Shown piece by piece: positions 26,498 through 44,835 of a DNA stretch of 64,000 nucleotides (positions are counted from its first letter, which is position 1; each line of letters starts with the position of its first letter). The stretch is from the NCBI GenBank assembly GCA_963725665.1, contig CAVRZA010000004.1:160001-224000 (forward strand), read 5' to 3'. The notes below the pieces were generated by a model. It was not told the DNA's origin, ran no database searches, and worked only from the letters and a program-made list of their open reading frames with translations. A program made the translations under genes and the position numbers. The stretch comes from an uncultured Actinomycetes bacterium (GTDB lineage Bacteria > Actinomycetota > Thermoleophilia > UBA2241).

Positions 26498-26624
26498 GGT
26501 CGCTGCACCTCACCGACCCCATGTCGTCGGCCCAGCGGATCCTTCCTTCGCCGCAAAGCCTACCGCGAACCCCCATCCGGCCCTCACGCTCTGCCAATCC
26601 GGACACAGTCCAACAAATCCGCAC

Positions 26625-27888: not shown

Positions 27889-27963
27889 GGACACCCGGAT
27901 CGGCGAGCTGACGGGGGCGGCCGATCGATGGTCGTCCACCGACTGTGATAGGAGGGGGAGCGA

Positions 27964-29605
27964 ATGGCAGACACGACAGCAGGCGCACCGATGGAGAAGA
28001 CGCTGTTCGTGCGCAAAGCGAGCGGCCTTGTCAAGGGCTGGTCGACGACAGACGGATTCAGGTACTCGTTCTTCTCCACCAACATCTTCCTCGGGATCTT
28101 CGGCTTCACCTACGCCGTCTTCATCCCCGGCGGCAGCCTCTTCTGGGCCGTCGTCATCACGACGGCCCTCGTGCTGCTCGAGGTCGTCGTGTACGCGGGG
28201 CTGATCTCGGCGATGCCACGTGCCGGCGGCGACTACGTGTGGCAGACGCGCGTGTTCCACAGCTCGGTCGGCTTCGTCCTTGGTGCGACCGGCTGGTGGT
28301 TCATCCTCTGGCTGTGGATCCCCCTGTACGCGGCGCTCTGCGTCAACCAGTTCATCATCCCGCTGCTAAGGATCGTGGGCTGGGGCAGCGCCGCCGACTG
28401 GCTGTTCACCAGCAACGGCATCTTCGTGGCGTCGCTGGCGACGATCGCCCTGGCGACCTACCTGGTCGCCATCGGCATGAAGTCCTACGCGACCTTCCAG
28501 AAGTGGGCCCTGTGGATCGGCTTGGCCGGCATGCTCGTGGGCGGCATCCTCCTGCTGGTCAACTCGAAGGCGAATTTCATCGCCGCCTTCAACCGCGAGA
28601 ACCTTCAGCTATACGGGGTCACAGGCGCGTACGGGAAGACGCTCGCCGCCGGCGGCGAGGGCATGCCCACGTCGATGTTCTCCGGTGCGGCGTGGGACAC
28701 GCTGAAGCTGATGCCCTTCATGCTGTTCTGGCTGCTTGTGGCCGAACTGGGGCGCTACCCTCTACGGCGAGGTCCGCGGCGCCAAGGACTTCCGCAAGAA
28801 CCTCTACCAGATGGGCGGCGGTCTCCTGGCGGCGGCTGCCATCGGACTTGTCTTCCTGGCGCTGGTCAGCAAGACGATGGGCTTCAAGTTCTTCATGGCC
28901 GGCAACAACGGCTACGAGGGCGTCATCTACGGCTACATCCCCGCGACGCCGCAGGGGGGCGAGTACCTCTCACCTACGGCGATGACGGCCTGGCTCGTCA
29001 ACAACTCGGCCTTCCAGGTCATCCTCATCGCGGCCATCTCCCTCCTTGTGTTCGGGTGGTGGGGGACGGTGTTCCTCTCGTCGACGCGCATGATCTTCGC
29101 GTCGGCCTTCGACCGCATCCTGCCGGAGCGGGCGGCGGCGGTCACAAAGGGCGGCGTGCCCTACGTGGCGCTGCTGCTCATGGCCATCCCGTCGGTCATC
29201 GTCTCGGCCTTCTACGCCTACGCGGACTGGTTCATCAAGCTCACCTACGACGCGACCCTGGTGATCGCCATCATGTTCCTCGGGTCCGGCCTCGCGTTCA
29301 TGATCATGCCGTGGCGCACCAAGGCTATCTGGGTGGCCTCAGCCCTGCCCAAGGCCAAGATCGCAGGCATCCCGGTGATGGCGATCGCCGCGGCCGGCTA
29401 CTCCGCGTTCCTCGCCTTCAACCTCTACCTGTGGTTCTACGATCCGACCAACACGTACGGCGTCGGCTACAAGAACAGCAACTCACTCATCTTCATGGCG
29501 ATCCTGTACGTCAGCGCGATCGTCATCTGGGTGGTCGCCTGGGTGGTGCGCAAACGCCAGGGCATGGCGCTCGAGGCGGTGGCGAAGGAGATCCCAGTCG
29601 AGTAA
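27964..29605 (+). CDS. APC-family amino acid/amine permease (one frameshift near 28735)
   Basis: LFVRKASGLVK, AMPRAGGDYVW, then a shifted frame with RMIFASAFDRILP. ~12 TM helices. Confidence 0.88.
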
Positions 29606-29699
29606 CTGAGACGGACTGGGGCCGCAGCGCCCCTCTGATCGTTGTGCGGGCGGCGGCTCGGCTGGTACAGCCGAGCCGCCGCCACGAGAAGGAGGTTGC

Positions 29700-31106
29700 A
29701 TGAAGATACTGACGAGGCTGGGCGACAACTCCAACGTCGAGCTGACGCGGGAGGAGTTGCGCAAGGAGCTCGAGGAGGGCACGCAGGCCGCGGCGACCAA
29801 GGCCAAGATCGCCCCGCTCACCGAGAACGAGCTCGACTACCTCGAGGAGATGTTCGTCTGTCCCAGCCGCATCTGGGGCGTCGAGCGCGGCCACGAGGTG
29901 GTCATGACCAAGGACGGCTGCGTCAACGCGCTCAACTCGTCGCGCATGTCGAGCGGCGTCGCGGCGCCCGTCAACCGCGAGGTGGGGGTGCGCCTCTTCG
30001 AGTCGATGCTGGGCTTCGACTCGATGGAAGTCTCGCACAACGACTACTCGGTCAAGCCGCAGCGCTTCCTCAAGGCGCTCGAGCAGGTGCATATGGAGCT
30101 CCTGCAGGAGACGACGATCTTTCCCCTGCTCTACGGCTTCATGCCGAACTTGGGCCTCTACTACCGGCCCGACGGCTCCTTCCCCAACCCCTCCGACCTG
30201 CTGCCGATGGGCAAGATCGACGAGGCTCGGCAGACGCAGGAAGAGGCCCTCGAGGCTTGCCAGGCGGACTGCATCGAGATGAGCGACTGCATGCTCGAGA
30301 TGGGTGCCGACGGCATCGACTACGACACCGTGGCGTCGACCGGCGACGCGGAGTTCCTGGCGGTGCTGCGCACGACCGAGCATGTGGCGAACGAGACGGG
30401 GCTGCCGGTCGAGATCGGCATGTCGGCCGAGATGGTGCTCGGCTTCCACGGCCAGCTCGAGTACGACGGCGTGCGCCTGGCCGGCCTGTGGCCGCACCAG
30501 CAGGTGCAGCTCTGCGAGAAGGCCGGCTGCACGATCTTCGGCCCGGTCGTCAACACCAACACGAGGAAGACCATCCCCTGGAACCTGTCGCGGGCCGTCA
30601 CCTTCGTCAAGGCCTGCACCGACATCGCCAAGATCCCCGTGCACGCCAACTGCGGCATGGGCGTCGGCGGCGTGGCCATGTTCGAAACGCCCGCCGTCGA
30701 CGTCGTGACGCGCGCCGGCGCGGCCATGGTCGAGATCGGCCGCGTCGACGGGTTGTAGGTGGGCACGGGCGACCCGGCCGGGATGCACACGGCGCATCTG
30801 TTGGCCTCGTCGATGGGTGGCATCAGGGCTGCCGGAGATCTGGTGGCGAGGATGCAGCTCAGCAAGAAGATGAGGATCGACGATGCCAAGCGGTACGTGG
30901 CCGACAAGCTCCATGTGAGCCCGCTCGACCTCTCCGACCCGACGGTGATGAGGCTCCTGCGCGAGGAGCTCGACATCGGCGTGGTCACGGCCGTCCCCGG
31001 CATCGCCAAGGGCATGGCGGCCAAGGTGCGCATCGCCGAGCTGCTCGACATCGAGATCAACTCGGTCGAGCAGTTCAAGAAGAAGACGGGCCTGCGCAGC
31101 GTGTAG
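29700..31106 (+). CDS. mtbB: Dimethylamine:corrinoid methyltransferase MtbB with in-frame TAG (pyrrolysine) at 30756-30758
   Basis: ORFs 29700..30758 and 30759..31106 are in the same frame, separated only by TAG. VDGL-[TAG]-VGTGDP...[10 protein letters not shown]...LREELDIG matches the MtbB VDG(I/V)-Pyl-IGVGDP context. Confidence 0.92.
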
Positions 31107-31114
31107 ACCGCAAG

Positions 31115-31272
31115 TGCGGCGAGACGTCGGCGCCCCTGCCGGGGCGCAAGCGCCGTTAGGCGAATGCAGAACGCGCGAGCGTGGGCGCGCGGGGTCGGGC
31201 TGCGGCGAGCGTCGGCGCCCCTTCCGCGGTGCACGCCGCCAGCCGAGTGCAGTTAGGCGAATGCAGAACGCG
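31115..31272. repeat. Degenerate two-unit direct repeat between convergent mtbB and tkt
   Basis: gttaggcgaatgcagaacgcg exact at 31155-75 and 31252-72. tgcggcgag(a)cgtcggcgcccct at 31115 and 31201. Confidence 0.75.
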
Positions 31273-31334
31273 GGAGGGGCCGGGCCGTACGGCGGCCCGG
31301 CCCCTCGCGCGGAATCGGCCTCGTGTGCCGGCTA

Positions 31335-33380
31335 TCAGCCGCCAACGGGAGCCGTCTGCGCCTTGCTCAGCAGAGCCTTGGCGCGCTGGTAGACGTTCTC
31401 GGCGGTGAAGCCGAGCTGCTCGAAGATCGTGCCGCCCGGCGCCGAGGCGCCGAAGCGGTCGAGGGTGATGAGCTCGCCCTCGTCACCGATCCAGCGGTGC
31501 CAGCCTAGGCTCGCTGCGGCCTCGACGGCGAGGCGGCGCCGGCAGGACGCGGGCAGGACGCTCTCGCGGTAAGCCTCGTCCTGGCGTGCGAACAGTGTGA
31601 ACGAGACCATGTTGACGAGGCGCGAGCGCACGCCCTCGGCCGCGAGTCGCTCGTGGGCGGCGAGAGCGTGCTGTACCTCGCTGCCGCTGGCGATGAGGAT
31701 GATGTCCGGTGTGCCTGCGCCGTCGGCGTCGGCGAGCACGTAGGCGCCGCGCGCCAAGCCGCTCGCCGGGGCGTAGACCGCGCGGTCGATGATGGGCAGG
31801 TTCTGCCGCGTCAGCATGAGCCCCGTGGGACCGTCGTTGCGCAGGGCGATCTTCCAGGCCTCTACCGTCTCGTTCGCGTCCGCGGGGCGGATGTCGGTGA
31901 AGCCGGGAGTCGCACGCATCATGGCGAGATGCTCGATCGGCTGGTGGGTGGGTCCGTCCTCGCCGAGGCCTACGCTGTCGTGCGTGAGCACGTAGACGAG
32001 CGGCTGCTTCATGATCGCCGAGAGGCGAAAGGCGGGCCGCATGTAGTCGGTGAAGACGAAGAAGGTGGCCACGTAGGGGCGCACGCCCCCGTGCAGGGCC
32101 ATGCCGTTGCCGATCGCCGCCATGGCGTGCTCGCGCACGCCGAAGTGGAAGTTGCGCCCCGCGGGCGTCGTCGCCTGCTGGTCGGGCACGTCCTTGATCA
32201 GGGTGTTGTTCGAGGGCGCGAGGTCGGCCGAGCCGCCGATCAAGGTGGGCAGACGCGGCGCCAGCGCGTTGATGACCTTGCCAGACGCCACGCGGGTCGC
32301 GACCGCGCCGTCCTCGGGCTTGAACAGCGGCAGGTCGGCGTCCCAGCCCTCAGGCAGGGTCCGCGACCAGGCATCCTGCCACGCCTTCGCCCGGGCGAGG
32401 TCGGACGCCCTCCACGCCTTGAGACGCTCGTTCCAGGCGGCGTGCGCGGCTGCGCCGCGTCGCGCCGCCTCCTCGTAGAACGCCCTAACCTCGTCGGGCA
32501 CCAAGAAGGTCGGCTCGAGGGGCCAGCCGAGGTTCTCCTTGGTCAGCTTGACCTCGTCGGCGCCGAGCGGCGCGCCGTGGGCGCCGGCGGAGTCCTGCTT
32601 GTTGGGCGAGCCGAAGGCGATGTGAGTGCGCACAGCGATGAACGACGGCCTGCCCGTCTCGGCCTTGGCCGCGGCGATCGCCGCGTCGATGGCCTCGAGG
32701 TCGTTGCCGTCGCCGACGCGCTGCACGTGCCAGCCGTAGGCGGCGAAGCGCGCACACACGTCCTCGGTGAAGGCGAGGTCGGTCGAGCCGTCGATGGTGA
32801 TGTGGTTGTCGTCGTAGATGACGATGAGCTTGCCGAGCTTCTGGTGGCCGGCGAACGACGCCGCCTCACTGCTCACGCCCTCCATCATGTCGCCGTCACC
32901 GGCGAGCACGTAGGTGAAGTGGTCCATCACCTGCGGCCCGTCGCCGTTGAACGTGGCGGCCAGGAAGCGCTCGGCGACGGCCATGCCGACGGCGTTGGCG
33001 AAACCCTGGCCCAGAGGGCCGGTCGTCGTCTCGACGCCGGCGGTGTGGCCGTACTCGGGGTGCCCCGGGGTCCTGCTGCCCCACTGTCTGAAGGCGCGCA
33101 GGTCGTCGAGCGTCACGTCGTAGCCCGTGAGGTGAAGCAGGGAGTAGAGCAGCATGCTGGCATGGCCGGCCGACAGCACGAAGCGGTCGCGGTTTGGCCA
33201 AGCCGGGTCGGCCGGGTCGAAGCGCAGGTGCCGCGTGAACAGCGTGTGCGCTACGGGCGCCGCGCCCATCGGCATGCCGGGATGCCCGGAGTTGGCTTTC
33301 TGCACTCCGTCGACGGCGAGGAATCGGATCGTGTCGATGCAGCGTTCTTCGAGACTCTGTGCACTCGCCACTGGGATCAT
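31335..33380 (-). CDS. tkt: Transketolase
   Basis: [38 protein letters not shown]. Confidence 0.97.
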
Positions 33381-33578
33381 CTGCGTCCTTTCGTCCCCGC
33401 CGTCACCAGGGCGATGCGGCGGACGCTCGTCCGCCTCGCCCCCACGGGCGGGATCGGGTGGGTGGTCGGCCGGACAGTGTTGCGCTCGCGGAGGCAGAGC
33501 CCGGCGGGCGCCCTCCCGCCCGAGGCGGGAGGGCGCCCGCCGTCAGCGGGCGCGTGTCTTGGTCGTGGCGCGTAGGGC

Positions 33579-34685
33579 CTAGCCGAAGTACTCGCGGACG
33601 AACTTGACGAAGCGCTCGTTCTCGGCGACCGTGCCCGGCGTGACCCTGAAGTAGCCCTCTTTGCCGTTGATCGGCTTGATGGTCTTGATGAGGACCTGGT
33701 AGCCCTCCTTGGCGGCGTCGACCATCTCCTGCGACGTCTTGCCGGTCACGCCGGCGTCGACGAGCATGTAGTTGCCGTGCGGCGGGTAGGGCTTGAGGCC
33801 CTTGGCCTTCAGCTCCTCGACAAAGCGGTCCATCCACTCGTTGTTGTACTTGACCTTCTCCTTGACCTCCTCGGGGTTATCGAGGATCGCCTCGGCGGCC
33901 GCCATCGCCATCAGGCTCACGTTCCAGGGCAGGTACATGCGGCTGAAGGCCTCGACGAGCTCGGGCACGGCGACGACGTAGCCGAAACGCACACCCGCGA
34001 GGCCGTAGGCCTTGGAGAGGGTGTGCGAGAGGAACACGTGCGGGTACTTCTCGACGAGGTCGATCTTGGCCTCGACCTGCGGATGGTAGTCGAGGTAGGC
34101 CTCATCGACGCAGAGCGGGATGCCCAGCTCGCAGAACTTGGCCAGGTCGGCGTCGTCGATGAAGATCCCCGTCGGGTTGTTGGGGTTGATGATGAGCATC
34201 AACTTGGTCTTCTCGTTGACGGCCGCCAGCATCCCCTCGACGTCGTACTGCAGGTCGGGCTCGCGCAGCGGGATCTGGACGTTCACGCCGCCGCACAGGC
34301 CGGCGCGCGAGGGGAACATCTCGAACGTCGGGATCGAGCAGAGGAACTCGTCGCCCGGCTTCATGAAGATGCGCATCATCGCGTCGATGGTCTCGGAGGA
34401 CCCGTTGGCCACCGCGATGTTGTCCGGGCTCACGCCGTGCAGGTTGGCCAACTTCGTGCGCAGCCGCAGCATCCGGTCCGGGTAGCGGTTGCCCTGCTTG
34501 ATGATGTTGGCGGCCGCGTTGACGACCTTGTCGGAGGGCGGCACGGGGTTCTCGTTGAGCATCATGCGGCCCAACTCCGGATGCGCCCATGCGACGTCGC
34601 AGACGGCGATGCTGTACTGGGGCGCCGTCATCACCCACGGCATGAACAGGTCCTCTACCGGCTTCTTGATCTGCGCCATTCTCAT
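33579..34685 (-). CDS. PLP-dependent aminotransferase class I/II (HisC-like)
   Basis: NENP, NPNNPTG, VDEAY, TLSKAYGLAGVRFGY. Confidence 0.9.
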   Translation of the reverse strand: MRMAQIKKPVEDLFMPWVMTAPQYSIAVCDVAWAHPELGRMMLNENPVPPSDKVVNAAANIIKQGNRYPDRMLRLRTKLANLHGVSPDNIAVANGSSETIDAMMRIFMKPGDEFLCSIPTFEMFPSRAGLCGGVNVQIPLREPDLQYDVEGMLAAVNEKTKLMLIINPNNPTGIFIDDADLAKFCELGIPLCVDEAYLDYHPQVEAKIDLVEKYPHVFLSHTLSKAYGLAGVRFGYVVAVPELVEAFSRMYLPWNVSLMAMAAAEAILDNPEEVKEKVKYNNEWMDRFVEELKAKGLKPYPPHGNYMLVDAGVTGKTSQEMVDAAKEGYQVLIKTIKPINGKEGYFRVTPGTVAENERFVKFVREYFG

Positions 34686-34712
34686 CCGTCCTTCCTCGTC
34701 AGGGGATCGTCG

Positions 34713-35936
34713 TCAAGCGGGTGTCGGAGCCGCGAAGCAGCTTCCTTCGAGGCACTTGCCTGCGAACTCGACCATGTCGTTGGTGGCCTTGCTGAACTGC
34801 TCCGCCGTCTTCACCAGCGCCGGGTGCGTGTTGTACTCGTCCCTGGTGTAGCCGTCCTCGCGGTAGGCGCGCTCGAAATAGGGCACGCGGAGCAGCTTGT
34901 CCATGACCTCCTCGGGGAAATCCTGCCAGATGCGCCCGCCGTCGTATGTGATGTCCTGGGGGGTGGGGAAGAAGAGCAGCTCGTCGATCAATCCCGGCGG
35001 GCAGGTGACGATGATGTCGCCGCCGGCCTTCTCCTCCAGGTGCCAGATGCGCGTCTTGCCGTCGACGGTCGGTCCCAGACGCAGCGAGCACGACAGCATC
35101 TTGCTCGGGTAGCCGCGCTCCTTGACCGTGCGGTAGGCCTTCTTGAAGATGGCCAGTTCCGCCGTGCGCACATCGGCCTCGGTGAGCTCGATGCCCTCCT
35201 CCTTGGCGAAGTCGCGCAGGCCGCCGAGGTCGCCGTAGCGGGCCTCCATGTGGGTGATCACGGAGCGCCACTTCGAGAGGTCGACGCCGTTGGCCTTGGC
35301 CTTCTCGAGACCCCGCACGACGGTCTTCGCGCAGTCCAGGAGCTGCGACAGGACGAAGGTGAGCGTGTTGTTGGTCGGTATGCCGCGCGAGGTGAGCTCC
35401 TCGATGAGCTGGTAGCCCTGCTTCGTGCCGGGGCACTTGACCATGACGTTCGGGTTGACGGCGTGGATCTCGAGCGCCTGGGCGAGCATCGCGTCGTAGT
35501 CGAAGCAGGAGCGCGGGTCGACCTGGCCCGAGAGGAAGCCCTCCTTGTAGCCGGAGGCCTCGAAGAGGGGCAAGAACATGTCCGATCCGGCCTTCACTAC
35601 CTCTTTGTAGAGCAGCCAGAAGAGCGACTCCTTGTCGAGACCGTCGTGCTCTTCCATAAGACGTTGAGCGACCTTCTCCCAGCGCGGCGGATCGTCCTTG
35701 ATCGCCTGCAAGGAGAGGGGCGGGTTGGTGGTGACCCCGCGGAACAGCTGGCCGAGGGGGTTGTCTCTGTCGTACATGCGCGCGAAATTGCGTCTCAGGG
35801 TCTCCTTGTCGCCCTCGTCCGCCTTGGCCAGCTCCGTCTTGGTGAAGTTCTCGAAGATCACCGGGGAGGAGTCCCACCAGATCTCCATGCCGGGACTCAC
35901 GGCGACCAGCGTCTCCATCAGGTTGTGTTCTTGCAT
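34713..35936 (-). CDS. Transaldolase-family protein (divergent, 407 aa)
   Basis: WWDS, GVTTNPP, SGQVDP, VMVKCPGT (Schiff-base Lys), NNTLTF. Confidence 0.85.
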   Translation of the reverse strand: MQEHNLMETLVAVSPGMEIWWDSSPVIFENFTKTELAKADEGDKETLRRNFARMYDRDNPLGQLFRGVTTNPPLSLQAIKDDPPRWEKVAQRLMEEHDGLDKESLFWLLYKEVVKAGSDMFLPLFEASGYKEGFLSGQVDPRSCFDYDAMLAQALEIHAVNPNVMVKCPGTKQGYQLIEELTSRGIPTNNTLTFVLSQLLDCAKTVVRGLEKAKANGVDLSKWRSVITHMEARYGDLGGLRDFAKEEGIELTEADVRTAELAIFKKAYRTVKERGYPSKMLSCSLRLGPTVDGKTRIWHLEEKAGGDIIVTCPPGLIDELLFFPTPQDITYDGGRIWQDFPEEVMDKLLRVPYFERAYREDGYTRDEYNTHPALVKTAEQFSKATNDMVEFAGKCLEGSCFAAPTPA

Positions 35937-36025
35937 GTCTCCTCCTAGCTTCTAGGCTGAAGTGGATAGGGCGCTTCCGGCCCAAACAGCGGGCTCTTGT
36001 GGCCGGCCCCCGGCCGGGCGCGCCC

Positions 36026-36979
36026 TCATTGGTCTGCGAGCCATTTCGGATAGTCGGGGTCGGCGAAGCCGCGCTCGGCGCGTCCGACGCGCTCCATGGC
36101 CCATTCCATGTAGTCGAAATCGATCTTCGACACCGTGTGCTGGATCATCGCCCACACGTCCCACCAGATGGCGGAGACGATCTTGTAGAGCATCATGCGG
36201 CCGAAGAGACGCTCGTCCATGTGGCCCAGGTAGACTTCGATGACGAGCCGCTCCTCCTCACGCGAGTACGGGTGCTCCATGACGTGGTCGCCGAGGTCGA
36301 AGTACGGGTCGGTCATGCCGCCGTACTCCCAGTCGATGATCCACATCTTGCCGTCGGCGTCGATGATGAAGTTCTCCGAGAGCAGGTCGTTCTGGCAAGC
36401 GACGTCGGGGACGGGGTTGCGCGCCGTCGCCTCTTCGATCTCGTCCATTCGCTTCAGCATCGCGGCGAGACGGTCCGGCATGGGAGTGTTGATCTCGCGC
36501 GAGACCTTCGTGTAGCGGCGTAGCATGTCGAAGATCTCGATCTTGTTGCTGAAGACGGCCTTGTCGTGGTACACGCGGACCGCCTCGACGGCCTGCTTGA
36601 TGCGCTCCGGGTGCCCGGCCATCGTGTCGGGGTGCATGACCTCGCCGTCGACGAAGTCGATGACCATGGCCTTCTCGGGCTCGATGACGTGGGCGACCTG
36701 GGGGGCCGTGCCGATCCTGGCCGCCTCGAGCATGCACTCGCGCTCGATGTCGCGGTCGATGAACATGTCGGTGCCGGCCCCGGGCACGCGCAGTACGTAC
36801 TTGCCGCCGCCGGGGTTGCCCCAGCCGCCGTTCACCCAGATGATGTAGTTGTGGTTGGTGATGCCGCCCGGGAGCTCCTCCCAGCGGATGTCCTTGCCCT
36901 TCCAGTCGTCGATGCGCGCCACGGCCTCTTCGGGAGTCAGTCCGTGTGCCTTGTGGGTCTCGGTCGTCTCGCCTCCCAT
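36026..36979 (-). CDS. Choline/ethanolamine kinase-family phosphotransferase
   Basis: GGITNHNY, VLRVPG, CQNDLLSENF, IIDWEYG, DPYFDLG. Confidence 0.88.
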   Translation of the reverse strand: MGGETTETHKAHGLTPEEAVARIDDWKGKDIRWEELPGGITNHNYIIWVNGGWGNPGGGKYVLRVPGAGTDMFIDRDIERECMLEAARIGTAPQVAHVIEPEKAMVIDFVDGEVMHPDTMAGHPERIKQAVEAVRVYHDKAVFSNKIEIFDMLRRYTKVSREINTPMPDRLAAMLKRMDEIEEATARNPVPDVACQNDLLSENFIIDADGKMWIIDWEYGGMTDPYFDLGDHVMEHPYSREEERLVIEVYLGHMDERLFGRMMLYKIVSAIWWDVWAMIQHTVSKIDFDYMEWAMERVGRAERGFADPDYPKWLADQ

Positions 36980-37060
36980 TCCCCCTCCTTCTCTCATCTG
37001 CCGGTTGCAGCGGTGGGAAAGCCTGGTCTTCCCCGTCGCGTAGGAACGTTGCGGATCATC

Positions 37061-38443
37061 TCAGGAGACCGGGACCTCGAGTCCCATGGCGGCAAGTTCG
37101 GAGCGAACCTCGTCCATCACCTTGAGGTAGTCATCATTGATGATCCGCTTGCTCTTCGGGTCGTAAACCTCCTGGAAAGTGAGTCCTTTCTCGGGATCCT
37201 TCAGCTTGTCGCCGAACAGTGGATAGAGCTTCTGCGCGATCGGCTCGGCCTGCGCGCGCGTCAGCTTGGCGGCGGCGAGGCCCATCTCGGCGTGGAACTT
37301 GTGGTCGTCGGGCACCAGCGAGTCGGACTGCACCGCCATCGCCGGGTGGCCGGAGAAGACGTTGCCGCCGGAGGTCACCACAGCGAGCAGGTAGCAGGCC
37401 ATCTCGTGGTGGTACTGCTTGGTCCCCGAGCCGCCGCCGAGGTAGGGCAGGTTGACCATCGGGTAGCGCATGTTGCGCCCGATGGCCGCGTTCGACATGG
37501 CGATCGCCCAGATCAGCGGCTTCGTCGATGAGAGGTGCAGCTTGCTGTGCAGCGGTGCGTTGTAGTGGTAGCTGCCGCGGAAGATCAGGTTGCCCATGAT
37601 CATGTAGCAGGTCGCCGTGACGGCCACGCCCTCGGCGCCGCCCGCGTAGCCCCCGAAGAGCGGCGTCGAGGTCGAGCCGATGTTGGCGCTGATGCTGTTG
37701 TAGAAGGCCACCTTCTGCAGCGCCTCGTAACCGACCACCATCTCGCTGAGGAAGTCGATGAGGAAGCCGTCGCTGGGGCGCAGGCCGAAGTCGGGATAGC
37801 TGGCGGCGAACATCGAAGCCGGCTGCGAGGCGGCCGAGATGCCGTTGATGATGGGCAGGCCGGCGCGGCCCGACCGGCGTATCCCCTCGCGCGCCAGGCG
37901 CACCGTCTTGCACGCGGCGAGGACCTCCTGCGGCGAGCGCACGCGCGCATCCCTGCCGCGGAGGTGCAGGATCGACGGGACGCTCACCGAGTCGACGATG
38001 CTGAAGGACGCCATCTTCTCGACGGTATCCATGTAGACCTGCTCGTCGGTGGTGTAGATGCCGCCGCCCACGTGCACCCACGGACGGTCGTCCGTGGTGT
38101 CGGGGCGGCGGCCGTACATCGTCTTGCGCTCACGTCCCTCGCCGAAGGTCGCGCCGGTGGGGCACTGTGCGCAGGCGGTGAGGATCTCGTCGCGCGTGAA
38201 CTCCATGACGCGGTTGGTCTCGGGGCAGTAGCCGCCGGCCTCGGCCAGCAGGTCGACGGCCGCCTGGAAGACCCGGTCCGTAAGGTCGTCGTCGGTGTTG
38301 ATGATGGTCTCTCTGTCCCACTTGATCTGATGGCGCACGATCAGCTCGGCGAGCTTGGGGACGTAGCGCTTCATGTAGTAGTCGATCTCCGAGGTGAGCG
38401 GACCAGTCTCGGCGCGATCGAATACCTCGATCAGGTCAATCAT
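37061..38443 (-). CDS. MtmB-family monomethylamine methyltransferase homologue, pyrrolysine-free
   Basis: DDDLTDRVFQAA, PLFGGYAGGAEG, KGLTFQEVYD. The Pyl-equivalent region (GRPGMGI-O) reads GRAGLPI-I. Confidence 0.88.
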   Translation of the reverse strand: MIDLIEVFDRAETGPLTSEIDYYMKRYVPKLAELIVRHQIKWDRETIINTDDDLTDRVFQAAVDLLAEAGGYCPETNRVMEFTRDEILTACAQCPTGATFGEGRERKTMYGRRPDTTDDRPWVHVGGGIYTTDEQVYMDTVEKMASFSIVDSVSVPSILHLRGRDARVRSPQEVLAACKTVRLAREGIRRSGRAGLPIINGISAASQPASMFAASYPDFGLRPSDGFLIDFLSEMVVGYEALQKVAFYNSISANIGSTSTPLFGGYAGGAEGVAVTATCYMIMGNLIFRGSYHYNAPLHSKLHLSSTKPLIWAIAMSNAAIGRNMRYPMVNLPYLGGGSGTKQYHHEMACYLLAVVTSGGNVFSGHPAMAVQSDSLVPDDHKFHAEMGLAAAKLTRAQAEPIAQKLYPLFGDKLKDPEKGLTFQEVYDPKSKRIINDDYLKVMDEVRSELAAMGLEVPVS

Positions 38444-38530
38444 TGAATGCTCCTTCAGGTCGGGCCGCCGTTGGCGCGGGGTTGCGGGTCGACGACGCCG
38501 TCATCGCGAAGTCGCTCTCGGCGCCCGTCG

Positions 38531-39175
38531 TCACGCGAGCTCCGTAGCCACCATCACGGCTTCGTAGGCCGAGGCCGCCCAGCCGTCGGCGCCGATCTGG
38601 TCGGCCCACGCCTGAGTGGTAGCCCCACCTCCGACCATGACCTGGTACTTGTCGCGCGTCCCTTGCTCCTTGAGCGCTTCGATCAGGTCGCGCTGCCCTA
38701 CCAGCGTAGTGGTCAGCAAGGCAGACATGGCGATGATGTCCGCGTCGACCTCCTTCGCCTTGTCGACGAACTTGAAGAGGTCGACGTCGATGCCCAGGTC
38801 CCAGACCTCGAAGCCCGACGTCTCGAAGAGGAGTCTGAGGATGTTCTTGCCGATCGAATGCAGGTCGCCCTTGACCGTGCCGAGGACGATCTTGCCCTTC
38901 TTGGGCCCCTCGCCGCCGCTCTCCCTGATCTTTGGCTCGAGGATCTCCATGGCCGCTTGAAAGGCCAGCGCGGCCTGCATCAGCTCGGGCAGGAAGATCT
39001 CCTCGCACTCGAACTGCTCGCCGATCACGTTGAGCCCGGGCAGAAGCCCCTGATCGATGATGGCTTTCGCCTCGACACCCTCGGCGAGGGCATCGTCGAC
39101 CGCCGCGAGGACCGCGTCCTGGTCCTGGTCGATGACCGCCTGCTTGAGCTTCTCAAAGACCTGTTCGTCTGTCAT
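38531..39175 (-). CDS. Methyltransferase cognate corrinoid protein (MtmC/MtbC/MttC-like)
   Basis: IFLPELM cap domain, GTVKGDLHSIGK (DxHxxG), SALLTTT, VGG. Confidence 0.93.
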   Translation of the reverse strand: MTDEQVFEKLKQAVIDQDQDAVLAAVDDALAEGVEAKAIIDQGLLPGLNVIGEQFECEEIFLPELMQAALAFQAAMEILEPKIRESGGEGPKKGKIVLGTVKGDLHSIGKNILRLLFETSGFEVWDLGIDVDLFKFVDKAKEVDADIIAMSALLTTTLVGQRDLIEALKEQGTRDKYQVMVGGGATTQAWADQIGADGWAASAYEAVMVATELA

Positions 39176-39253
39176 CTGGTGCGCTCCCTGTCCCTTCTTC
39201 AGCCTGCGCTGTTGTTCAGGCCGATCGTCGCCCGTGTCGTGGCCGCCGGGTCG

Positions 39254-40711
39254 TCACGCCCGCGCTTCTTCCAGGGGCACGGCGTCGCCGGCGACGATGC
39301 CGGGGAAGCGTTCCCTGATGGCATCGTCGAGGTCGGCGTCCCACACCGCCGGATTGGCCTGCGAAAGGATGCGCAGCGCCTCGGCGAGCGCGCGCGAGCG
39401 GATCTCGGGCCGTCCCGCATCCTCCCACTGGGGCCGCATGCCGCGGTCGGCCAGCCGCGGCAGCACCGCGGTGGTCCGCATGCGCGCCTTCGTGTGCTTG
39501 CGGCCCATGTAGCTGCCGCCGGGGCCGACCGCGGCGATCTCGTCGATGGCCAGGTTCTCGTCGCTGAACTCGAGGCCCCGCCAGACGCGCTTGTCCATGA
39601 GCGCGACCTCGTTGTCGATGACGCACTTGGCGAAGTCGAAGGCCATGAGCGAGCTCAGGAGGCCGCCCATGTTGAGCAGCGTCGCGCCGGCGGCGACGCC
39701 GAGGAGCGTGTTCATCCCCGTTTCAAAGCCCGACTGCGCGTCGTTGGCGTGCGCGTTGGTGAGGCCGATGTAGCCCCCGGAGGGCACGTCGTAGTAGCGC
39801 GCCATCTGCGCCACGCCAGCCAGGAGCATGCCGGTCTCGATGGCGCCGGGGGCGTAGGCGCCCGTGCGCATGTCCGCCACGGTGGGCAGGCTGGCGTAGA
39901 TCACCGGTGTGCCCTCGGCGACCATCTGCTGCAGCGCGGTGATTGCGAGGAACTCGGCATTGGCGACGACCAGACAGCCCAGCAGCGTCATCGGCGCCGT
40001 GAGCCCCGCGTTGGGCACCACCGTCGTGTAGACGGGCAGGCGCCGCTCCGTGAGCCACATGACCGCCTCGGTCGAGTCGACGTCCATCGTGAGTGGGCTG
40101 ACCATGGGGCAGTAGTGGTGGTTGATGATCGGGCGCTCACGGTAGGCATCCGCGCCCCCGGCGATGAGCTCGCCAAGCGCGATCACCTGGCGTAGGTCGT
40201 CCATGGTGGGCGTGTTGCTGCGCACCGGCTTGAGGCAGTTCTTCAGCGCGGGATAGAAGCGGCTCAGGCTGTGCTGCCCGGGCGGGGCGTCGTCGGCCAG
40301 CGTAGAGATGCTGAAGACGTCGAACCCGGGCAGCTCGTTGATGAGGTAGGCGATAGTGGCGATGTCGGTGGAAGTCGCGCGGCGTTCTACGCCGGTGACC
40401 GGGTCGACCACGTTGGGCGCCGAGGAGCCGGTGACGACGACGGGACCGTCGTCGGGGATGGTGCGGTCGAACCCGGGGTCGCGGCCGCGGAACGTGAAGC
40501 TGCCCGGCGCCATCGTGCGATATCTCTCCACGACGGCGCCGGGCAGCTTCACGAGGCCGGTCTCGTCGTCGACGAGGCACCCATGCTGGGCGAGTATCTC
40601 TCTCGCGCGCGCGTTGTGCGCGAGGACGCCGACCGACTCGAGGACCTCGAGCGAGGCCTCGTGGGTGCGCTCGACCTCCTCCGGCGTGAGCAGTTCGAAG
40701 AACGCTGCCAT
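39254..40711 (-). CDS. MttB-superfamily methyltransferase, pyrrolysine-free
   Basis: EASLEVLESVGV, SPL, APMTLLG, DMRTG, DAQSGFE. The Pyl site is occupied by Leu (YIG-L-TNAH). Confidence 0.92.
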   Translation of the reverse strand: MAAFFELLTPEEVERTHEASLEVLESVGVLAHNARAREILAQHGCLVDDETGLVKLPGAVVERYRTMAPGSFTFRGRDPGFDRTIPDDGPVVVTGSSAPNVVDPVTGVERRATSTDIATIAYLINELPGFDVFSISTLADDAPPGQHSLSRFYPALKNCLKPVRSNTPTMDDLRQVIALGELIAGGADAYRERPIINHHYCPMVSPLTMDVDSTEAVMWLTERRLPVYTTVVPNAGLTAPMTLLGCLVVANAEFLAITALQQMVAEGTPVIYASLPTVADMRTGAYAPGAIETGMLLAGVAQMARYYDVPSGGYIGLTNAHANDAQSGFETGMNTLLGVAAGATLLNMGGLLSSLMAFDFAKCVIDNEVALMDKRVWRGLEFSDENLAIDEIAAVGPGGSYMGRKHTKARMRTTAVLPRLADRGMRPQWEDAGRPEIRSRALAEALRILSQANPAVWDADLDDAIRERFPGIVAGDAVPLEEARA

Positions 40712-40716
40712 CAGGC

Positions 40717-42006
40717 CTACACCTCACTCTCGCCGGCGGGGGCCGGGGTGGCGGGGGACTGGGCACGGGCGGGATCCGAGCCAGCGACGACGGCCGCCGA
40801 CGCGGCGATCTCGGCCAGCTCTGCAATGTGGCTCTCAATGAACTCAATCAACTTCACCTGATGCTCGAGGTACATGAGGTACTCGTCGTCGTTGCGCGCT
40901 GTCTTGTCCTCGTAGTAGGCGGTGACGTCCCAGTTGAGTACGTACAGGTTGCCGTTGGCGATCATGCGCGGCAGCAGCGCCAGCTCGGCCGCCGACATGG
41001 GACCGGGCTCGTCGTGCCTGGCAGCCTCGTCCTGGTAGGCGCGCACGAAGATGGCGGTCTTGTCGAGCCACAGCTCACCGCTGTCCGGCCCCTCCCAGGA
41101 GCTGCAGAAGTACGCCAGGGCGAGGCCCAGGTCAAAGAGGCGGTAGTCGAGCTTCGACCAGTCGAAGTCGAAGAAGCCGGTGCACGAGGACCCAGACCAC
41201 TCCACGGGGCGCATCGCGACGGCCTCCTGGTCGACCCACTTGAGGTTGCCGGGGTGGAAGTCGCAGTGCACTGGGATGAAGGGCATCCCCAGCAGCTGTG
41301 GCTCGATCGCGGTCCCCTTCTCGATGACCTCGAGGATCGCCGGCAGCTTGGCGAGGAAGTATTCGTCACTGCGCGTGTCGGTCGCTTGGGTCGCGCAGTC
41401 CTTGAAGGTGGCCGGAAGGCTGCGCAGCAGGTCCATGATCGGCGGCTGTTCGCGGGCGAGGCCTCGCGGATCGAAGTCGTGAGCGCAATAGTGGAAGTCG
41501 GACAGCACGCGCGCCGCGCTGTCAAGCTCTCTGTCGGTGCAGCGGTTCTTGACCCACGTGTACCTGTCCGCGCCGCTGAGCATCTCGTAGACGGCGAAGA
41601 AACGCACGAGCGTTCCGCCGTCGAGGACCTCCTCCCGAGTGACGAACGTGCCCGCGGCTTTGGTCGGGAAGACCTGCGCCGCCAAGTGGAAGCCTTTGCG
41701 GTTGATGTGACTCACGAGCGCGTGCTCGAAGCGGACTTCGCGCTCGGTGATGGCGCGGTTGTACTTGCGCACGAAGTAGCGGCGCTCACCGCTGCCGTCG
41801 TCGGCCCAGATGGCGAAGCTCAGGTTGACGTAGCCGCCGGTGATCTGTTCGATGCGCACGAACGCGCCCAGGTCGTAGTCGGTGGTGAAGACCTCGACGA
41901 GCTGCCCGGCGAGGAACTCCCATTCCAGCACGTCGCGCAGATGCGTGGTCTCCGCGACGAGGCTCTTCGTCAGCTCGAACAGCTCGTTCGCTCGCCGTAT
42001 GTCCAC
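40717..42006 (-). CDS. APH / homoserine kinase type II-like phosphotransferase
   Basis: GGYVN, FVRKY, HCDFHPGN, FDFDW. Confidence 0.88.
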   Translation of the reverse strand: MDIRRANELFELTKSLVAETTHLRDVLEWEFLAGQLVEVFTTDYDLGAFVRIEQITGGYVNLSFAIWADDGSGERRYFVRKYNRAITEREVRFEHALVSHINRKGFHLAAQVFPTKAAGTFVTREEVLDGGTLVRFFAVYEMLSGADRYTWVKNRCTDRELDSAARVLSDFHYCAHDFDPRGLAREQPPIMDLLRSLPATFKDCATQATDTRSDEYFLAKLPAILEVIEKGTAIEPQLLGMPFIPVHCDFHPGNLKWVDQEAVAMRPVEWSGSSCTGFFDFDWSKLDYRLFDLGLALAYFCSSWEGPDSGELWLDKTAIFVRAYQDEAARHDEPGPMSAAELALLPRMIANGNLYVLNWDVTAYYEDKTARNDDEYLMYLEHQVKLIEFIESHIAELAEIAASAAVVAGSDPARAQSPATPAPAGESEV

Positions 42007-42031
42007 AGCGCTCCCCCTCAGATCCGTGCCT

Positions 42032-42844
42032 TCACGCGACGACGCACCGCATCCCCGCGCGCTCTATCTGCTCGCGCGCGGGCTCCTCGACGCTGTCGTC
42101 TATCACGACCACGTCGACCTGGTCCGCGCGACAGATCACCACGTCGGCGACCACGCCGATCTTGCTGCGGTCGGCGAGCACGATCACCTCGCCGCGCGTG
42201 TGGTCGATCATCGCGCCTTCGATGCTGGCCATGGCGAGGCTCGGTGTGGTCACGCCCTCTTCGAGGTCGAACCCGTCGGCGCCGATCAACGTCTTGCCGG
42301 CGCGGAAGCGTTCCAGGTGCTCGAGGGCCGGCGGACCCTCGACCGCGTTCGTGCGCGGGCTGTAGAACCCGCCCAGCAGGATGAGCTCGAGGCGCAAGCC
42401 TTGGGCCTCGGTCACGGCGCCGACGTTGTGCGTGATCACCCGCGCCTGGAGCGCGGGATCGACGTGGCGCAGAACGCGTGCCGCCGTGGTGCCGTTGCTC
42501 AGGAACACCGTCTCGCCGGGCTGGATCATGGCCGCCGCCGCCTTGGCGATGCGCCCTTTCTCCTCCGTGTGCGCCGCCGCGCGCTCGACGTAGAGCGGCT
42601 CTTCGAGCATATGGCGCTTGAGGATCGCGCCGCCGTGGGTGCGCAACAGCATGCCCTCGGCTTCGAGCCGCTCGAGGTCCCTGCGGATGGTCATCTCCGA
42701 GACGCCGAGATCCTCGCTCAGCGACGAGACGCGCACCTCGCGCCGCTCGTTGAGGATCTCGACGATGCGCACGCGGCGCCCGGCTGGGATCATCTCACGG
42801 ACCTCAGGGACTCCTGTCGGTGACACTGGTTCCCTTGTGCTCAT
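42032..42844 (-). CDS. DeoR/GlpR-family transcriptional regulator
   Basis: VSEMTIRRDL, RTHGGA, GTT, LADRSK. Confidence 0.93.
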   Translation of the reverse strand: MSTREPVSPTGVPEVREMIPAGRRVRIVEILNERREVRVSSLSEDLGVSEMTIRRDLERLEAEGMLLRTHGGAILKRHMLEEPLYVERAAAHTEEKGRIAKAAAAMIQPGETVFLSNGTTAARVLRHVDPALQARVITHNVGAVTEAQGLRLELILLGGFYSPRTNAVEGPPALEHLERFRAGKTLIGADGFDLEEGVTTPSLAMASIEGAMIDHTRGEVIVLADRSKIGVVADVVICRADQVDVVVIDDSVEEPAREQIERAGMRCVVA

Positions 42845-42862
42845 GGTTGCCGCCCGGCGATT

Positions 42863-42889
42863 CCGAACATAGTCGCACACATCATAGCA
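42863..42889 (-). promoter_or_regulatory. Extended -10 promoter (TGCTATGAT) with downstream ATGTTCG box
   Basis: Minus strand tgctatgatgtgtgcgactatgttcgg just upstream of the deoR start. Confidence 0.5.
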
Positions 42890-43046
42890 CTCGCCGACCG
42901 GATTCAAGCTGTGCAGTTCTGGGAGATGTTGGGCGGCCCTGCCGGGTGTTGAGAGTGGCAGACTAGTCGAAAAGTCTTGACATCATAGGAGCCGAGGAAG
43001 AAGGTTGCGCCGACAGGTTTGGCCATGCTGAGCATTGGGGGTCTCT

Positions 43047-44690
43047 ATGGCAGACGCCATGTCCACACCACCGACCGGCAGCGGTCCTCCGGGGGGCGCG
43101 CCAGTCCTCGACGAAGACACCAAGCAGCTCCACGAAATGGGCTACGCCCAGGAGCTCGACCGCCGCATGAGCGGCTTCTCCAACTTCGCGATCTCTTTCA
43201 CCATCATCTCGATTCTGTCGGGCTGCCTCACCGTCTACTCCTTCGGTCTGCAACACGGCGGCCCGCCGGTCATCAACTGGGGCTGGCTGGGCGTCGGCAC
43301 CATCGTGTGCTTCGTCGGCCTGTCGATGGCCGAGATCTGCTCGTCCTACCCGACGGCCGGTGGCCTCTACTACTGGTCGGCCAAGCTGGCGCCCGGCAAG
43401 AGCGGGCCTTGGTGGTCGTGGTTCACCGGCTGGTTCAACCTGCTGGGGCAGGTCGCCGTCACGGCCGGCATCAGCTTCGGCTGCGCCTTCTCGTTCGCGG
43501 CCTTCCTCGCCGAGTACACCAACCAGAGCTACTGGCTGTCGCCGGGGCACGTCCTCGCCGTCCTGTTCGTCGTCCTCGCGTTCCAGGGCCTGTTGAACAC
43601 CTTCAGCATCCGCCTGGTGGCCCTCCTGAACGACATCTCGGTCTGGTGGCACCTCATCGGTGTGGCGGTCATCGTCTTTATCCTGTTCTGGGGGCCCGCG
43701 AAGACGGCAAACGCCAACTCGTTCTCGTTCATGTTCGGCAGCGAGGGGTGGAACGCGTTCGCGGGGCTCTCTGGATTCACGATGCCCGTCTACGTGGCGC
43801 TGCTCGGCCTTCTGAACGCGCAGTACACGTTCACCGGCTACGACGCCTCGGCCCACGTCTCCGAGGAGACGATCAAGGCGAACGTCGCCGCCGCGAAAGG
43901 CATCTTCAACTCCATCTGGGTCTCGCTCATCGCCGGCTTCATCCTGCTCGTCGGCGTGAGCTACGCGATCCCGGACTTCTCGCACCCGGTCAAGTTCGCG
44001 GGGTCGGTGATGACGGACTATGCCTCGTTCGCCGTGGTGTACCCCTGCTGGGCGGCGACCTTCGTTGACGCGGCCGGCAGGTCGGCGGCCCTGCTACTCA
44101 TCCTGGTGGTCGGCGTGGCGCAGTTCTACTGCGGCATGTCGTCGGTCACGGCCAACTCGCGCATGATCTACGCGTTCTCACGCGACGGCGCCGTCCCCGG
44201 TCATCGCCTCTGGCACACGGTGAGCAAGAAGCGGCGCGTCCCCGTCGCCTCGGCCTGGTTCGGCGCCGTGGGAGCGTTCCTCATCTCCATCCCCTACCTG
44301 TGGAACTACACCGCCTACAACGCGGTGGTGGCCACGGCCGTCGTCGGCCTCTACATCGCCTACATGATCCCGGTGATTCTGCGCCGCATCAACTCCAAGG
44401 CGTTCGTGCCGGGCCCGTACAAGCTGAACCCGACGTTCAGCTTCGTGATCAACTGGATCGCCATCATCTGGGTGGTGTTCATCTGCATCGTGTTCCTGCT
44501 GCCGCAGTGGTCACCGATCACTGTCAAAACGTTCAACTACTCGCCTGTCATTGTGGCGGCCGTCATCGGGTTCGCCGGCATCTACTGGTTGGTGAGCGCT
44601 CGCAAGTGGTTCAAGGGACCGAAGGTCCAGGGCACGGCCGAAGAACTCGCCAGGATCGAGCGCGAGCTCACCGAGTTCGACGTAACGTAA
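43047..44690 (+). CDS. APC-family amino acid/amine permease (GABA/choline-type)
   Basis: MGYAQELDR, FSNFAISF, AEICSSYPTAGGLY, GYDASAH, SRMIYAFSRDG. Confidence 0.93.
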   Translation: MADAMSTPPTGSGPPGGAPVLDEDTKQLHEMGYAQELDRRMSGFSNFAISFTIISILSGCLTVYSFGLQHGGPPVINWGWLGVGTIVCFVGLSMAEICSSYPTAGGLYYWSAKLAPGKSGPWWSWFTGWFNLLGQVAVTAGISFGCAFSFAAFLAEYTNQSYWLSPGHVLAVLFVVLAFQGLLNTFSIRLVALLNDISVWWHLIGVAVIVFILFWGPAKTANANSFSFMFGSEGWNAFAGLSGFTMPVYVALLGLLNAQYTFTGYDASAHVSEETIKANVAAAKGIFNSIWVSLIAGFILLVGVSYAIPDFSHPVKFAGSVMTDYASFAVVYPCWAATFVDAAGRSAALLLILVVGVAQFYCGMSSVTANSRMIYAFSRDGAVPGHRLWHTVSKKRRVPVASAWFGAVGAFLISIPYLWNYTAYNAVVATAVVGLYIAYMIPVILRRINSKAFVPGPYKLNPTFSFVINWIAIIWVVFICIVFLLPQWSPITVKTFNYSPVIVAAVIGFAGIYWLVSARKWFKGPKVQGTAEELARIERELTEFDVT

Positions 44691-44835
44691 GTCATCCAAT
44701 TGCCGTGTGAGCAGACCTCACCCGACAGCCCCGAGTGTGCGGACGGGCGGCGCGGCAGCGCCGCCCGTCCGCTTTGTTTTGCAGCTTGGGCGGCGGTATC
44801 GTAGCCTGCGCGACGCTGAGAGCCGAGGAGGGGTC

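Follow-up and report, generated by a model that had tools for sequence, protein, structure and literature searches.

A corrinoid methyltransferase operon of an uncultured Thermoleophilia bacterium as a possible catabolic island for choline

Among the methylated nitrogen compounds of soils, peat and guts, choline is a major one, and its anaerobic fate sets how much trimethylamine, and hence methane, is formed. The known corrinoid-dependent route, described in 2025 in the gut bacterium Eubacterium limosum (JBC, PMC12155760), takes a single methyl group and excretes the remaining dimethylethanolamine. In the available part of that article, choline is phosphorylated by the kinase MthK, MthB methylates the corrinoid protein MthC with phosphocholine only, and MthA then transfers the methyl group to tetrahydrofolate. 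The same text lists Sporomusa malonica among the choline growers with co-localised mthK and mthB homologues, and the homologues that it mentions come from Firmicutes and delta-proteobacteria only. A second system of interest is that of Methanococcoides methylutens, in which MtqB, an MtmB homologue free of pyrrolysine (Pyl), demethylates tetramethylammonium and choline and belongs to a clade with a conserved Met/Cys/aromatic site (PMC13044021, 2026, available part). Here we describe a nine-gene operon that can be compared with both systems. It is found in a stretch of 64,000 nucleotides (the window from here on; contig CAVRZA010000004.1 of assembly GCA_963725665.1, positions 160,001 to 224,000) from an uncultured bacterium of the Thermoleophilia, whose genome, labelled G000, comprises 3.73 Mb in 12 contigs with 68% GC.

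We read this locus as a catabolic island for choline or a close relative, which would be demethylated to phosphoethanolamine and then turned into a sugar phosphate, and we put the probability of this reading at about 45%. The principle of phosphorylating before demethylating, the first three proteins of the route and one substrate of a Pyl-free MtmB homologue are already known; what is new is that Thermoleophilia add to them a Pyl-free MtmB homologue, a second choline-type kinase, a pyrrolysine-encoding MtbB (Pyl-MtbB) and often a triad made of a transaldolase-like (TAL-like) protein, a HisC-like aminotransferase and a transketolase. If true, the reading would account for the use of the two remaining methyl groups and of choline's carbon skeleton, would offer candidate substrates for two sizeable orphan groups, namely bacterial Pyl-free MtmB homologues and the many bacterial Pyl-MtbB paralogues, and would define a new point at which a two-carbon phosphate enters the pentose phosphate pathway.

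According to open reading frames (ORFs) and Pfam and NCBIfam profiles, the nine genes are all encoded on the minus strand between positions 42907 and 31335, with intergenic gaps of 5-198 bp. For each of them the GC content at third codon positions (GC3) is 0.88-0.97, which, in a genome of 68% GC, indicates that the nine ORFs are real genes. An earlier annotation of the same DNA, the sequence-only reading, had described nine co-oriented and closely spaced genes, and both the orientation and the order that it gave were recovered here. No minus-strand terminator-like site is listed by the consensus scan in 26500-45000, and the scan for promoters and terminators gave nothing above chance inside the operon. 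The first gene (42032..42907, minus strand) encodes a DeoR-family regulator (PF00455, 128 bits, and PF08220) whose start is uncertain, as the helix-turn-helix domain begins only at residue 44 and the true start may lie downstream of 42907. RNA runs covering the region do so with shares of at most 0.23. The RNA contigs (one RNA-seq library, two doubtful) are short and mostly 88-95% alike to the window, which indicates that they derive from relatives; they fall in the mtbB, aminotransferase, second kinase, MtmB, MttB and DeoR genes, and none shows a joint transcript.

The second gene (40717..42006, minus strand) encodes an MthK-like kinase of the APH fold (PF01636, 73.7 bits), a predicted choline kinase that is single-copy in G000. 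Its relatives were collected by scanning species-representative genomes with a 20-sequence kinase alignment, which matched 406 stretches; 362 were confirmed and the best 80 were kept as loci. Among these, 56 are actinobacterial, with a kinase at least 45% identical to that of the window, and 37 of them are evaluable, that is, they have at least 5 kb of downstream flank. The other 24 loci, with kinases of 37-43% identity, belong to other phyla (Sporomusa, Desulfosporosinus, Desulfobacterales and others), and 17 are evaluable. The nearest matches of the kinase gene in the scan are found in metagenome-assembled genomes of Thermoleophilia or Actinomycetota. The family is small, with 348 cluster representatives at E<=0.001 among 1.84 billion, and the motifs HxDxxxxN (H247, D249, N254) and FDFD are invariant in the 20-sequence alignment, the former being named the Brenner phosphotransferase motif in the available text of PMC12155760. 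By our own arithmetic, the kinetic constants published there imply a mass of about 48 kDa for MthK, which fits the 429 residues of the window kinase.

The third gene (39254..40711, minus strand), which starts 5 bp after the kinase gene, encodes an MthB-like, Pyl-free member of the MttB superfamily, predicted to act as a phosphocholine:corrinoid methyltransferase. Its uninterrupted ORF of 485 residues matches PF06253 (273 bits) over profile positions 30-490, and its best solved relatives are MtgB and MttB. The fourth gene (38531..39175, minus strand) encodes the cognate, MthC-like corrinoid protein (PF02310 and PF02607), which matches the NCBIfam models of MtgC and of MtbC-type proteins below their cut-offs and has orthologues of 76-85% identity at the same position in related loci. 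The window kinase is 39-43% identical, over its full length, to kinases encoded beside MttB in S. malonica, S. acidovorans and Desulfosporosinus. The median gap between kinase and MttB genes is 71 bp across the 57 of 80 loci that have an MttB match of at least 55% identity. The MttB homologue adjoining the kinase is 58-68% identical to that of the window in 14 of the 24 loci from other phyla (65% in S. malonica), and none of the about 30 paralogues of the window protein in G000 exceeds 36.5% identity to it. Indeed, the kinase-MttB-corrinoid series stands side by side in Sporomusa and Desulfosporosinus, and in S. malonica the order is kinase, MttB, corrinoid protein and Pterin_bind methyltransferase, with an EamA transporter nearby. 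Given these side-by-side relatives, the growth of S. malonica on choline and the distance of the MttB homologue from its own paralogues, the assignment of the kinase, the MttB homologue and the corrinoid protein to a predicted phosphocholine demethylase of the MthK/MthB/MthC type is well supported.

The likeness to the E. limosum system, drawn via the Sporomusa relatives (39-40% kinase identity), lies in an APH-fold kinase encoded beside a Pyl-free MttB gene and a corrinoid protein, and in a phosphorylation that would precede demethylation. Differences are also evident. The window operon has neither an MthA-type gene nor an EamA transporter, and its kinase gene is co-directional with the methyltransferase gene, whereas the E. 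limosum kinase gene is divergent. Moreover, the E. limosum route ends at dimethylethanolamine, whereas the locus in the window adds two types of methyltransferase, a second kinase, an aminotransferase, the TAL-like protein and a transketolase.

The first of the added methyltransferases is encoded by the fifth gene (37061..38443, minus strand), a Pyl-free MtmB homologue and predicted second N-demethylase. It matches PF05369 (227 bits) over positions 1-450 without a stop and carries an Ile aligned with Pyl202 of Methanosarcina barkeri MtmB (1L2Q); a search of the ESM Atlas returned generic MtmB clusters only. The sequence-only reading had taken both the MttB and the MtmB homologue to be Pyl-free, in agreement with the lack of internal stops in either ORF, and had held that Pyl-free MtmB homologues have no established substrate, a statement now superseded by MtqB (PMC13044021, available part). 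Orthologues 85-92% identical directly follow the corrinoid gene in 30 of the 37 evaluable actinobacterial loci and in none of the 17 from other phyla. Like MtqB with MtqC in M. methylutens Q3c, the window protein is a Pyl-free MtmB homologue encoded beside a corrinoid protein and with a link to choline. MtqB is, by contrast, a methanogen enzyme that works on free tetramethylammonium or choline, while the window gene belongs to a bacterium and follows an MthB-type enzyme and kinases, so that its substrate may be a phosphorylated, partly demethylated amine.

The sixth gene (36026..36997, minus strand) encodes the second kinase, which matches the full profile of the choline/ethanolamine kinase (ChoK) family (PF01633, 88.9 bits). 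The third methyltransferase is encoded on the opposite strand by a convergent mtbB gene (29700..31159, plus strand), the last member of a phosphoesterase-permease-mtbB set that spans 26941-31159. Its match to PF09505 (Dimeth_Pyl, 429 bits up to the stop) ends at profile position 353 of 463, at an in-frame TAG codon located at 30756-30758. The 132 residues encoded past this TAG are 52-72% identical to the post-stop regions of other MtbB paralogues of G000, and the C-terminal domain of PylS is found in the genome at 314.6 bits (cut-off 178). By these features, the convergent mtbB is a gene that encodes pyrrolysine. The sequence-only reading was right about the presence of the convergent set and of a divergent APC permease; mtbB is not Pyl-free, and the permease of the set is frameshifted. 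A tblastn search with the window proteins indicates that G000 holds about 30 MttB-family, 8 MtbB and 4 MtmB-like genes together with about 13 corrinoid proteins. The window MtbB shares with the Pyl-dependent MtbB of methanogens the Dimeth_Pyl family, the in-frame TAG at the conserved site and the presence of PylS, but it is one of 8 paralogues and its orthologue group travels with choline genes. In many relatives, mtbB shares its strand with the choline module or the triad. This co-travel suggests that its substrate may be a secondary or tertiary amino alcohol, or its phosphate, rather than free dimethylamine. Some Actinobacteriota genomes of the Stordalen Mire study express Pyl-encoding mttB and mtbB and are regarded as versatile methylotrophs in the available part of that source.

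The coherence of this gene set was evaluated in 41 related genomes, G000 included. The kinase is present in 12 of them. These 12 genomes, and no others, carry the MtmB orthologue (85-91% identity), and ChoK-family members of at least 47% identity are likewise restricted to them. An MtbB orthologue of at least 74% identity is found in 11 of the 12, the best match of the twelfth reaching 70% and that of the other 29 genomes 67%, a distribution that makes the convergent mtbB part of the choline gene set. Thus, three methyltransferases, one corrinoid protein and two kinases travel together. At the level of loci, DeoR precedes the kinase in all 37 evaluable actinobacterial cases, which also contain the MttB homologue (30), the corrinoid protein (31), MtmB at 80% identity or more (30), ChoK (24), the metallophosphoesterase, beside the permease (31), and MtbB (16). 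Genes for MtmB, ChoK and MtbB were found in none of the 17 evaluable loci from other phyla. A frequent order on one strand, as in L034, is DeoR, kinase, MttB, corrinoid protein, MtmB, ChoK, phosphoesterase, permease and MtbB. The recurrence of the same genes in many related genomes shows that their arrangement exceeds chance; conservation of the gene combination, which the sequence-only reading had proposed as a check, was thus found, with kinase, MtmB and ChoK held together in 12 of 41 genomes.

The last three genes of the operon form the triad. They encode a long transaldolase-fold protein of the TAL_FSA superfamily (34713..35936, minus strand; PF00923, 103.7 bits), the HisC-like class I/II aminotransferase (33579..34685, minus strand; PF00155, 178 bits) and the transketolase (31335..33380, minus strand; TIGR00232, 900 bits against a cut-off of 682), in which the Transketolase_N, Transket_pyr and C-terminal domains are all present. 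Of the 12 genomes with the kinase, 8 also hold an orthologue of the TAL-like protein (72-78% identity); the other 29 genomes have none. The order TAL-like, aminotransferase, transketolase was found in 7 of the 8 orthologous loci fetched from relatives; in the eighth, a contig of 7.6 kb, a KdpD-domain gene comes after the TAL-like and aminotransferase genes. No more than about 25 kb separate the triad from the kinase or other choline genes in G000, in all four of G020-G023, and in L046, L055, L069, L074, L077, L078 and L080. In particular, the whole set is placed on one strand within about 21 kb in G020 and G023, from kinase to MtbB with the triad between; the triad is divergent from and adjacent to the choline genes in G022, and is co-linear with the choline module on one strand in L078. 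The six loci L046, L055, L069, L074, L077 and L080 share the order TAL-like, aminotransferase, transketolase, DeoR, an unknown protein, phosphoesterase, permease, DeoR and kinase. In the five genomes searched among these six loci, no further kinase of the family was found; in four of them the MtmB orthologue shares the contig with the kinase, at a distance of about 19-24 kb, and in the fifth it is placed on a separate contig.

The TAL-like protein, of about 400 residues, has a predicted structure with a pLDDT (predicted local distance difference test) of 90, and its best PDB folds are all transaldolases (TM-score 0.68-0.79). As in transaldolases and FSA, a TIM-barrel fold, the Schiff-base Lys (invariant, in a V-K-x-P motif), an Asp, an N-x-T motif and the phosphate-binding Arg are retained. 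The protein departs from canonical transaldolases in its length, in a Gln at the site of the catalytic Glu, a residue shared with FSA and with engineered TalB E96Q entries, and in a Met instead of Phe or Tyr at the position of TalB Phe178, with an orthologue-specific His and Glu on its flanks (T-H-M-E-A-R, a motif seen only in triad orthologues). The TalB positions are those that we take to be Glu96 and Phe178, in line with the titles of PDB entries. Since neither the Glu nor the Phe site is retained, the protein is classed only as a member of the TAL_FSA superfamily. That it might be the organism's only transaldolase was considered and rejected, as a short TAL_FSA gene is present at C2:19905-20501.

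The aminotransferase scores 260.9 bits with TIGR01141, below the HisC cut-off of 276.55, and the genome holds a separate, true HisC (C11:269718-270770, 342 bits with the same model). It shares the fold of HisC and subfamily I-beta, and its motif around the lysine that binds pyridoxal phosphate is conserved with respect to plant HISN6, to which it scores 157 bits. The HisC family binds amino-alcohol phosphates such as histidinol phosphate (PMC4703992, available part), a property that would suit the proposed substrate. Below-cut-off score and separate HisC aside, the window enzyme would differ from HisC in that this substrate is a terminal amine.

The route that we propose would run as follows. 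The divergent permease of the APC type (43035..44690, plus strand; PF13520, 190 bits; TIGR00907 subfamily, 383 bits, below cut-off), whose orthologues of 64-72% identity adjoin the second kinase in L036, L039, L042, L078 and L102, would import the amino alcohol. The MthK-like kinase would convert it to phosphocholine, from which the MthB-like MttB homologue would move one methyl group to the Co(I) corrinoid protein, leaving N,N-dimethylethanolamine phosphate. Methylcorrinoid:tetrahydrofolate methyltransferases encoded elsewhere would take the methyl group onward, for which three Pterin_bind genes (66-75 bits) located elsewhere in G000 are candidates. Judged from homology and synteny, these steps, from import to the passage of the first methyl group to tetrahydrofolate, are quite probable. 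The MtmB homologue and Pyl-MtbB, working with the same corrinoid protein, would then remove the second and third methyl groups to give phosphoethanolamine, Pyl-MtbB taking the secondary amine by analogy with dimethylamine, and the second kinase would capture free, partly demethylated amino alcohols or ethanolamine. For this middle part we see the chances as evenly balanced.

From phosphoethanolamine, the HisC-like aminotransferase would generate glycolaldehyde phosphate, which would serve as the aldehyde acceptor to which the Gln-type TAL enzyme adds a dihydroxyacetone unit, giving xylulose 5-phosphate; the transketolase would then pass the latter to central metabolism. The stereochemistry of transaldolase-type products is consistent with xylulose 5-phosphate. 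This last part is tentative and somewhat doubtful. As the aminotransferase requires a primary amine, it would act only once all three methyl groups are gone, and full demethylation before transamination would in turn explain the presence of the triad only where all three types of methyltransferase are present. The phosphate installed by the kinase would be kept along the path, so that no phosphate recycling of the MthK kind (dimethylaminoethanol phosphate:choline phosphotransferase in E. limosum) would be needed, and a single DeoR regulator would sense a phosphorylated intermediate. A broader statement, that Thermoleophilia of soil and peat mineralise choline fully and anaerobically without release of trimethylamine, by means of three corrinoid methyltransferases that share one corrinoid protein and of a conversion of phosphoethanolamine to xylulose 5-phosphate that conserves the ATP spent by the kinase, would be a shade more doubtful still.

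The sequence-only reading had proposed the same logic of phosphorylation, demethylation, transamination and entry as a sugar phosphate for an N-methylated amino sugar or polyol. The logic holds, but the kinase-MttB relatives and S. malonica make choline or phosphocholine the likely substrate instead. Its statement that no pathway of this layout had been described needs a similar division: kinase action before demethylation is already published (PMC12155760, available part), while the extended layout was found in none of the literature searched. That literature contains no description of an MthB-type, an MtmB-type and a Pyl-MtbB methyltransferase with two kinases in Actinomycetota, with the proviso that the supplements of PMC12155760 may list more organisms, nor of a link between choline genes and a triad of aminotransferase, Gln-type transaldolase and transketolase.

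A number of observations, given here and in the following paragraphs together with the alternatives to which they belong, weigh against the choline-to-sugar-phosphate reading. As to the demethylation steps, six Desulfobacter-type loci carry the kinase without an MttB gene in the flank, and the sole characterised Pyl-free MtmB homologue takes quaternary amines and not a tertiary amine phosphate (PMC13044021, available part).

As to the triad, it may be that two independent units are merely adjacent, one for the demethylation of (phospho)choline with release of dimethyl- or methylethanolamine or ethanolamine, the other, the triad, for pentose-phosphate or amino-acid supply. In several genomes the triad forms a self-contained unit of fixed order with a DeoR of its own. 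About 150 kb separate it from the choline module in G019, and the TAL-like query did not recover it from 4 of the 12 genomes that carry the kinase (completeness 81-95%). In G000, G019 and G021, no one-piece transketolase other than that of the triad was found, so that the operon copy may be the housekeeping enzyme, and in triad-free genomes the transketolase usually lies beside a canonical transaldolase. Moreover, an aromatic aminotransferase (4r2n) ranks second among the solved relatives of the triad aminotransferase. The restriction of TAL-like orthologues to kinase-bearing genomes (8/12 versus 0/29) argues against a chance neighbourhood, as does the distance of at most about 25 kb between triad and kinase in most genomes where contigs permit judgement. 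In addition, a single DeoR heads choline genes and triad together in the window, L078 has the triad in line with the choline module on one strand, a housekeeping HisC and a second TAL_FSA gene exist elsewhere in G000, and in G022 a further one-piece transketolase (66% identity) is present apart from the triad copy. On balance, mere adjacency appears unlikely, if by no means far-fetched.

The TAL-like protein brings in a different alternative, that of the amino sugar or polyol named above, which would be phosphorylated, demethylated and transaminated to a keto sugar phosphate before being cleaved or rearranged by the TAL-like enzyme and the transketolase. The invariant Gln of the TAL-like protein in place of catalytic Glu96 is a first point of doubt for the choline route. 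A second is found in its full-length homologues of 39-43% identity, which are present in 13 of 400 other genomes of the phylum (12 of 28 in one family): the six loci inspected have surroundings of a sugar or polyol type, in which FGGY kinases, split transketolases, E1-type thiamine enzymes and RpiB are encoded. Clusters of this kind in which the long Gln-type clade occurs also hold IolD- and IolE-like genes, and the DeoR-type regulator would also agree with an amino sugar. Furthermore, a HisC-type enzyme that acts at C2 next to a phosphorylated C1 would yield a product like a ketose 1-phosphate. Against this stand the grouping of the kinase and the MttB homologue with the kinase-MttB pairs of choline users (PMC12155760, available part), the membership of the second kinase in the choline/ethanolamine kinase family, and an operon with no sugar-specific transporter, isomerase or dehydrogenase. 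From these comparisons an amino-sugar substrate appears less likely than choline, and the alternative as a whole very unlikely.

Several relatives of the TAL-like protein were seen in other settings. In three other Actinomycetota loci (L110, L112 and L114; 28-46% GC), Gln-type TAL homologues of 39-41% identity directly follow an E1_dh and Transket_pyr/C pair. The clusters of L110 and L114 comprise a split transketolase, RpiB, a SorC-type regulator and a class II FBP aldolase, with an FGGY kinase in L114, and in L110 the TAL cluster is followed by a LacI-type regulator gene, a corrinoid protein and an MttB homologue. A paralogue of 33% identity in L024 (G008:C15) comes after IolD-like (thiamine enzyme), IolE-like (xylose-isomerase-like barrel) and GFO/IDH/MocA genes, a setting that would suit the aldolase of an inositol-type pathway.

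The aminotransferase is the point at which a third alternative enters, a route through serine. HisC-type enzymes normally act on a C2 amine and not on a terminal amine, which is a further difficulty for phosphoethanolamine as substrate. In the serine route, the methyl groups would pass to tetrahydrofolate and from there to serine, and the HisC-like enzyme would transaminate serine or phosphoserine to (phospho)hydroxypyruvate, which would be reduced and phosphorylated to phosphoglycerate or would serve as two-carbon donor for the transketolase. Hydroxypyruvate is a classical donor of transketolase. In 2 of the 8 triad loci (L017 and L021), a 2-hydroxyacid dehydrogenase and a glycerate 2-kinase are encoded directly upstream; the best NCBIfam matches of the dehydrogenase are glyoxylate/hydroxypyruvate reductases, below cut-off, and the pair hints at hydroxypyruvate/glycerate chemistry. 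This pair is missing from the other 6 triad loci and lies outside the window operon. SerC was not found in G000 with TIGR01366 or TIGR01364, which would leave a place for the HisC-like enzyme, but the search with TIGR01366 was equally negative in all 25 genomes of the family, both those with and those without the HisC-like gene, so that this gene is not a general replacement of SerC. On the same ground, the candidate role of housekeeping phosphoserine aminotransferase was rejected. The serine route would also leave the two kinases and the link between kinase and triad unexplained, and is, all in all, quite unlikely.

With choline or a close relative retained as the preferred substrate, the genes around the operon can be described more briefly. 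The terminator-like hairpin at 44739-44772 lies 3' of the divergent permease. In the convergent set, mtbB is preceded by a metallophosphoesterase with weak calcineurin-like matches (26941..27888, plus strand) and by an APC-type permease with one frameshift (27964..29605, plus strand). The two halves of the permease match N- and C-terminal parts of AA_permease profiles, and an intact orthologue aligns to it with residues 10-303 in one frame and 305-590 in another; the GC3 frame switches near 28734-28739, next to a G run. The DNA contig of a relative is one base short at 28734, so that the frameshift may be an assembly slip; it could reflect either an assembly error or a pseudogene.

Paralogues of the metallophosphoesterase (37-41%) are located at C2:298000-314000 (L028), near another Pyl-MtbB, and at C6:372000-386000 (L027), beside a similar permease, which suggests a recurring phosphoesterase-permease-methyltransferase module. 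In relatives, and in the paralogous locus of G000, a conserved protein of about 270 residues without a Pfam or NCBIfam match is encoded between DeoR and the phosphoesterase-permease pair (L046:5288-6121, L019:6170-6985, L027:6619-7428); it is not present in the window.

A second methyltransferase neighbourhood occupies 52288-63106 of the window. It includes a class-III aminotransferase (52288-53673, minus strand), another Pyl-free MttB homologue (53811-55358), an aromatic-amino-acid-lyase family protein of 714 residues (55805-57949), an ABC transporter (58100-60981), a corrinoid protein (61144-61803) and an MtmB-like ORF (61808-63106), the Pfam match of which covers profile positions 160-327 only. 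Three further proteins are possible one-carbon or corrinoid helpers, namely a short MetE-like (Meth_synt_2) protein (10526-11647), an MTHFR-like protein (21970-22821) and a B12-binding radical SAM protein (50175-51608). An aldehyde:ferredoxin oxidoreductase (46449-49304, minus strand) carries an extra N-terminal stretch of about 375 residues without a Pfam match, and about ten further paralogues of this enzyme exist in G000. Finally, the window encodes a Fic-domain protein of 772 residues (11646-13964) and four GGDEF-domain proteins (2398-7682 and 15953-17407), one of which also has an EAL domain; two of the four carry PAS and one carries GAF sensor domains.

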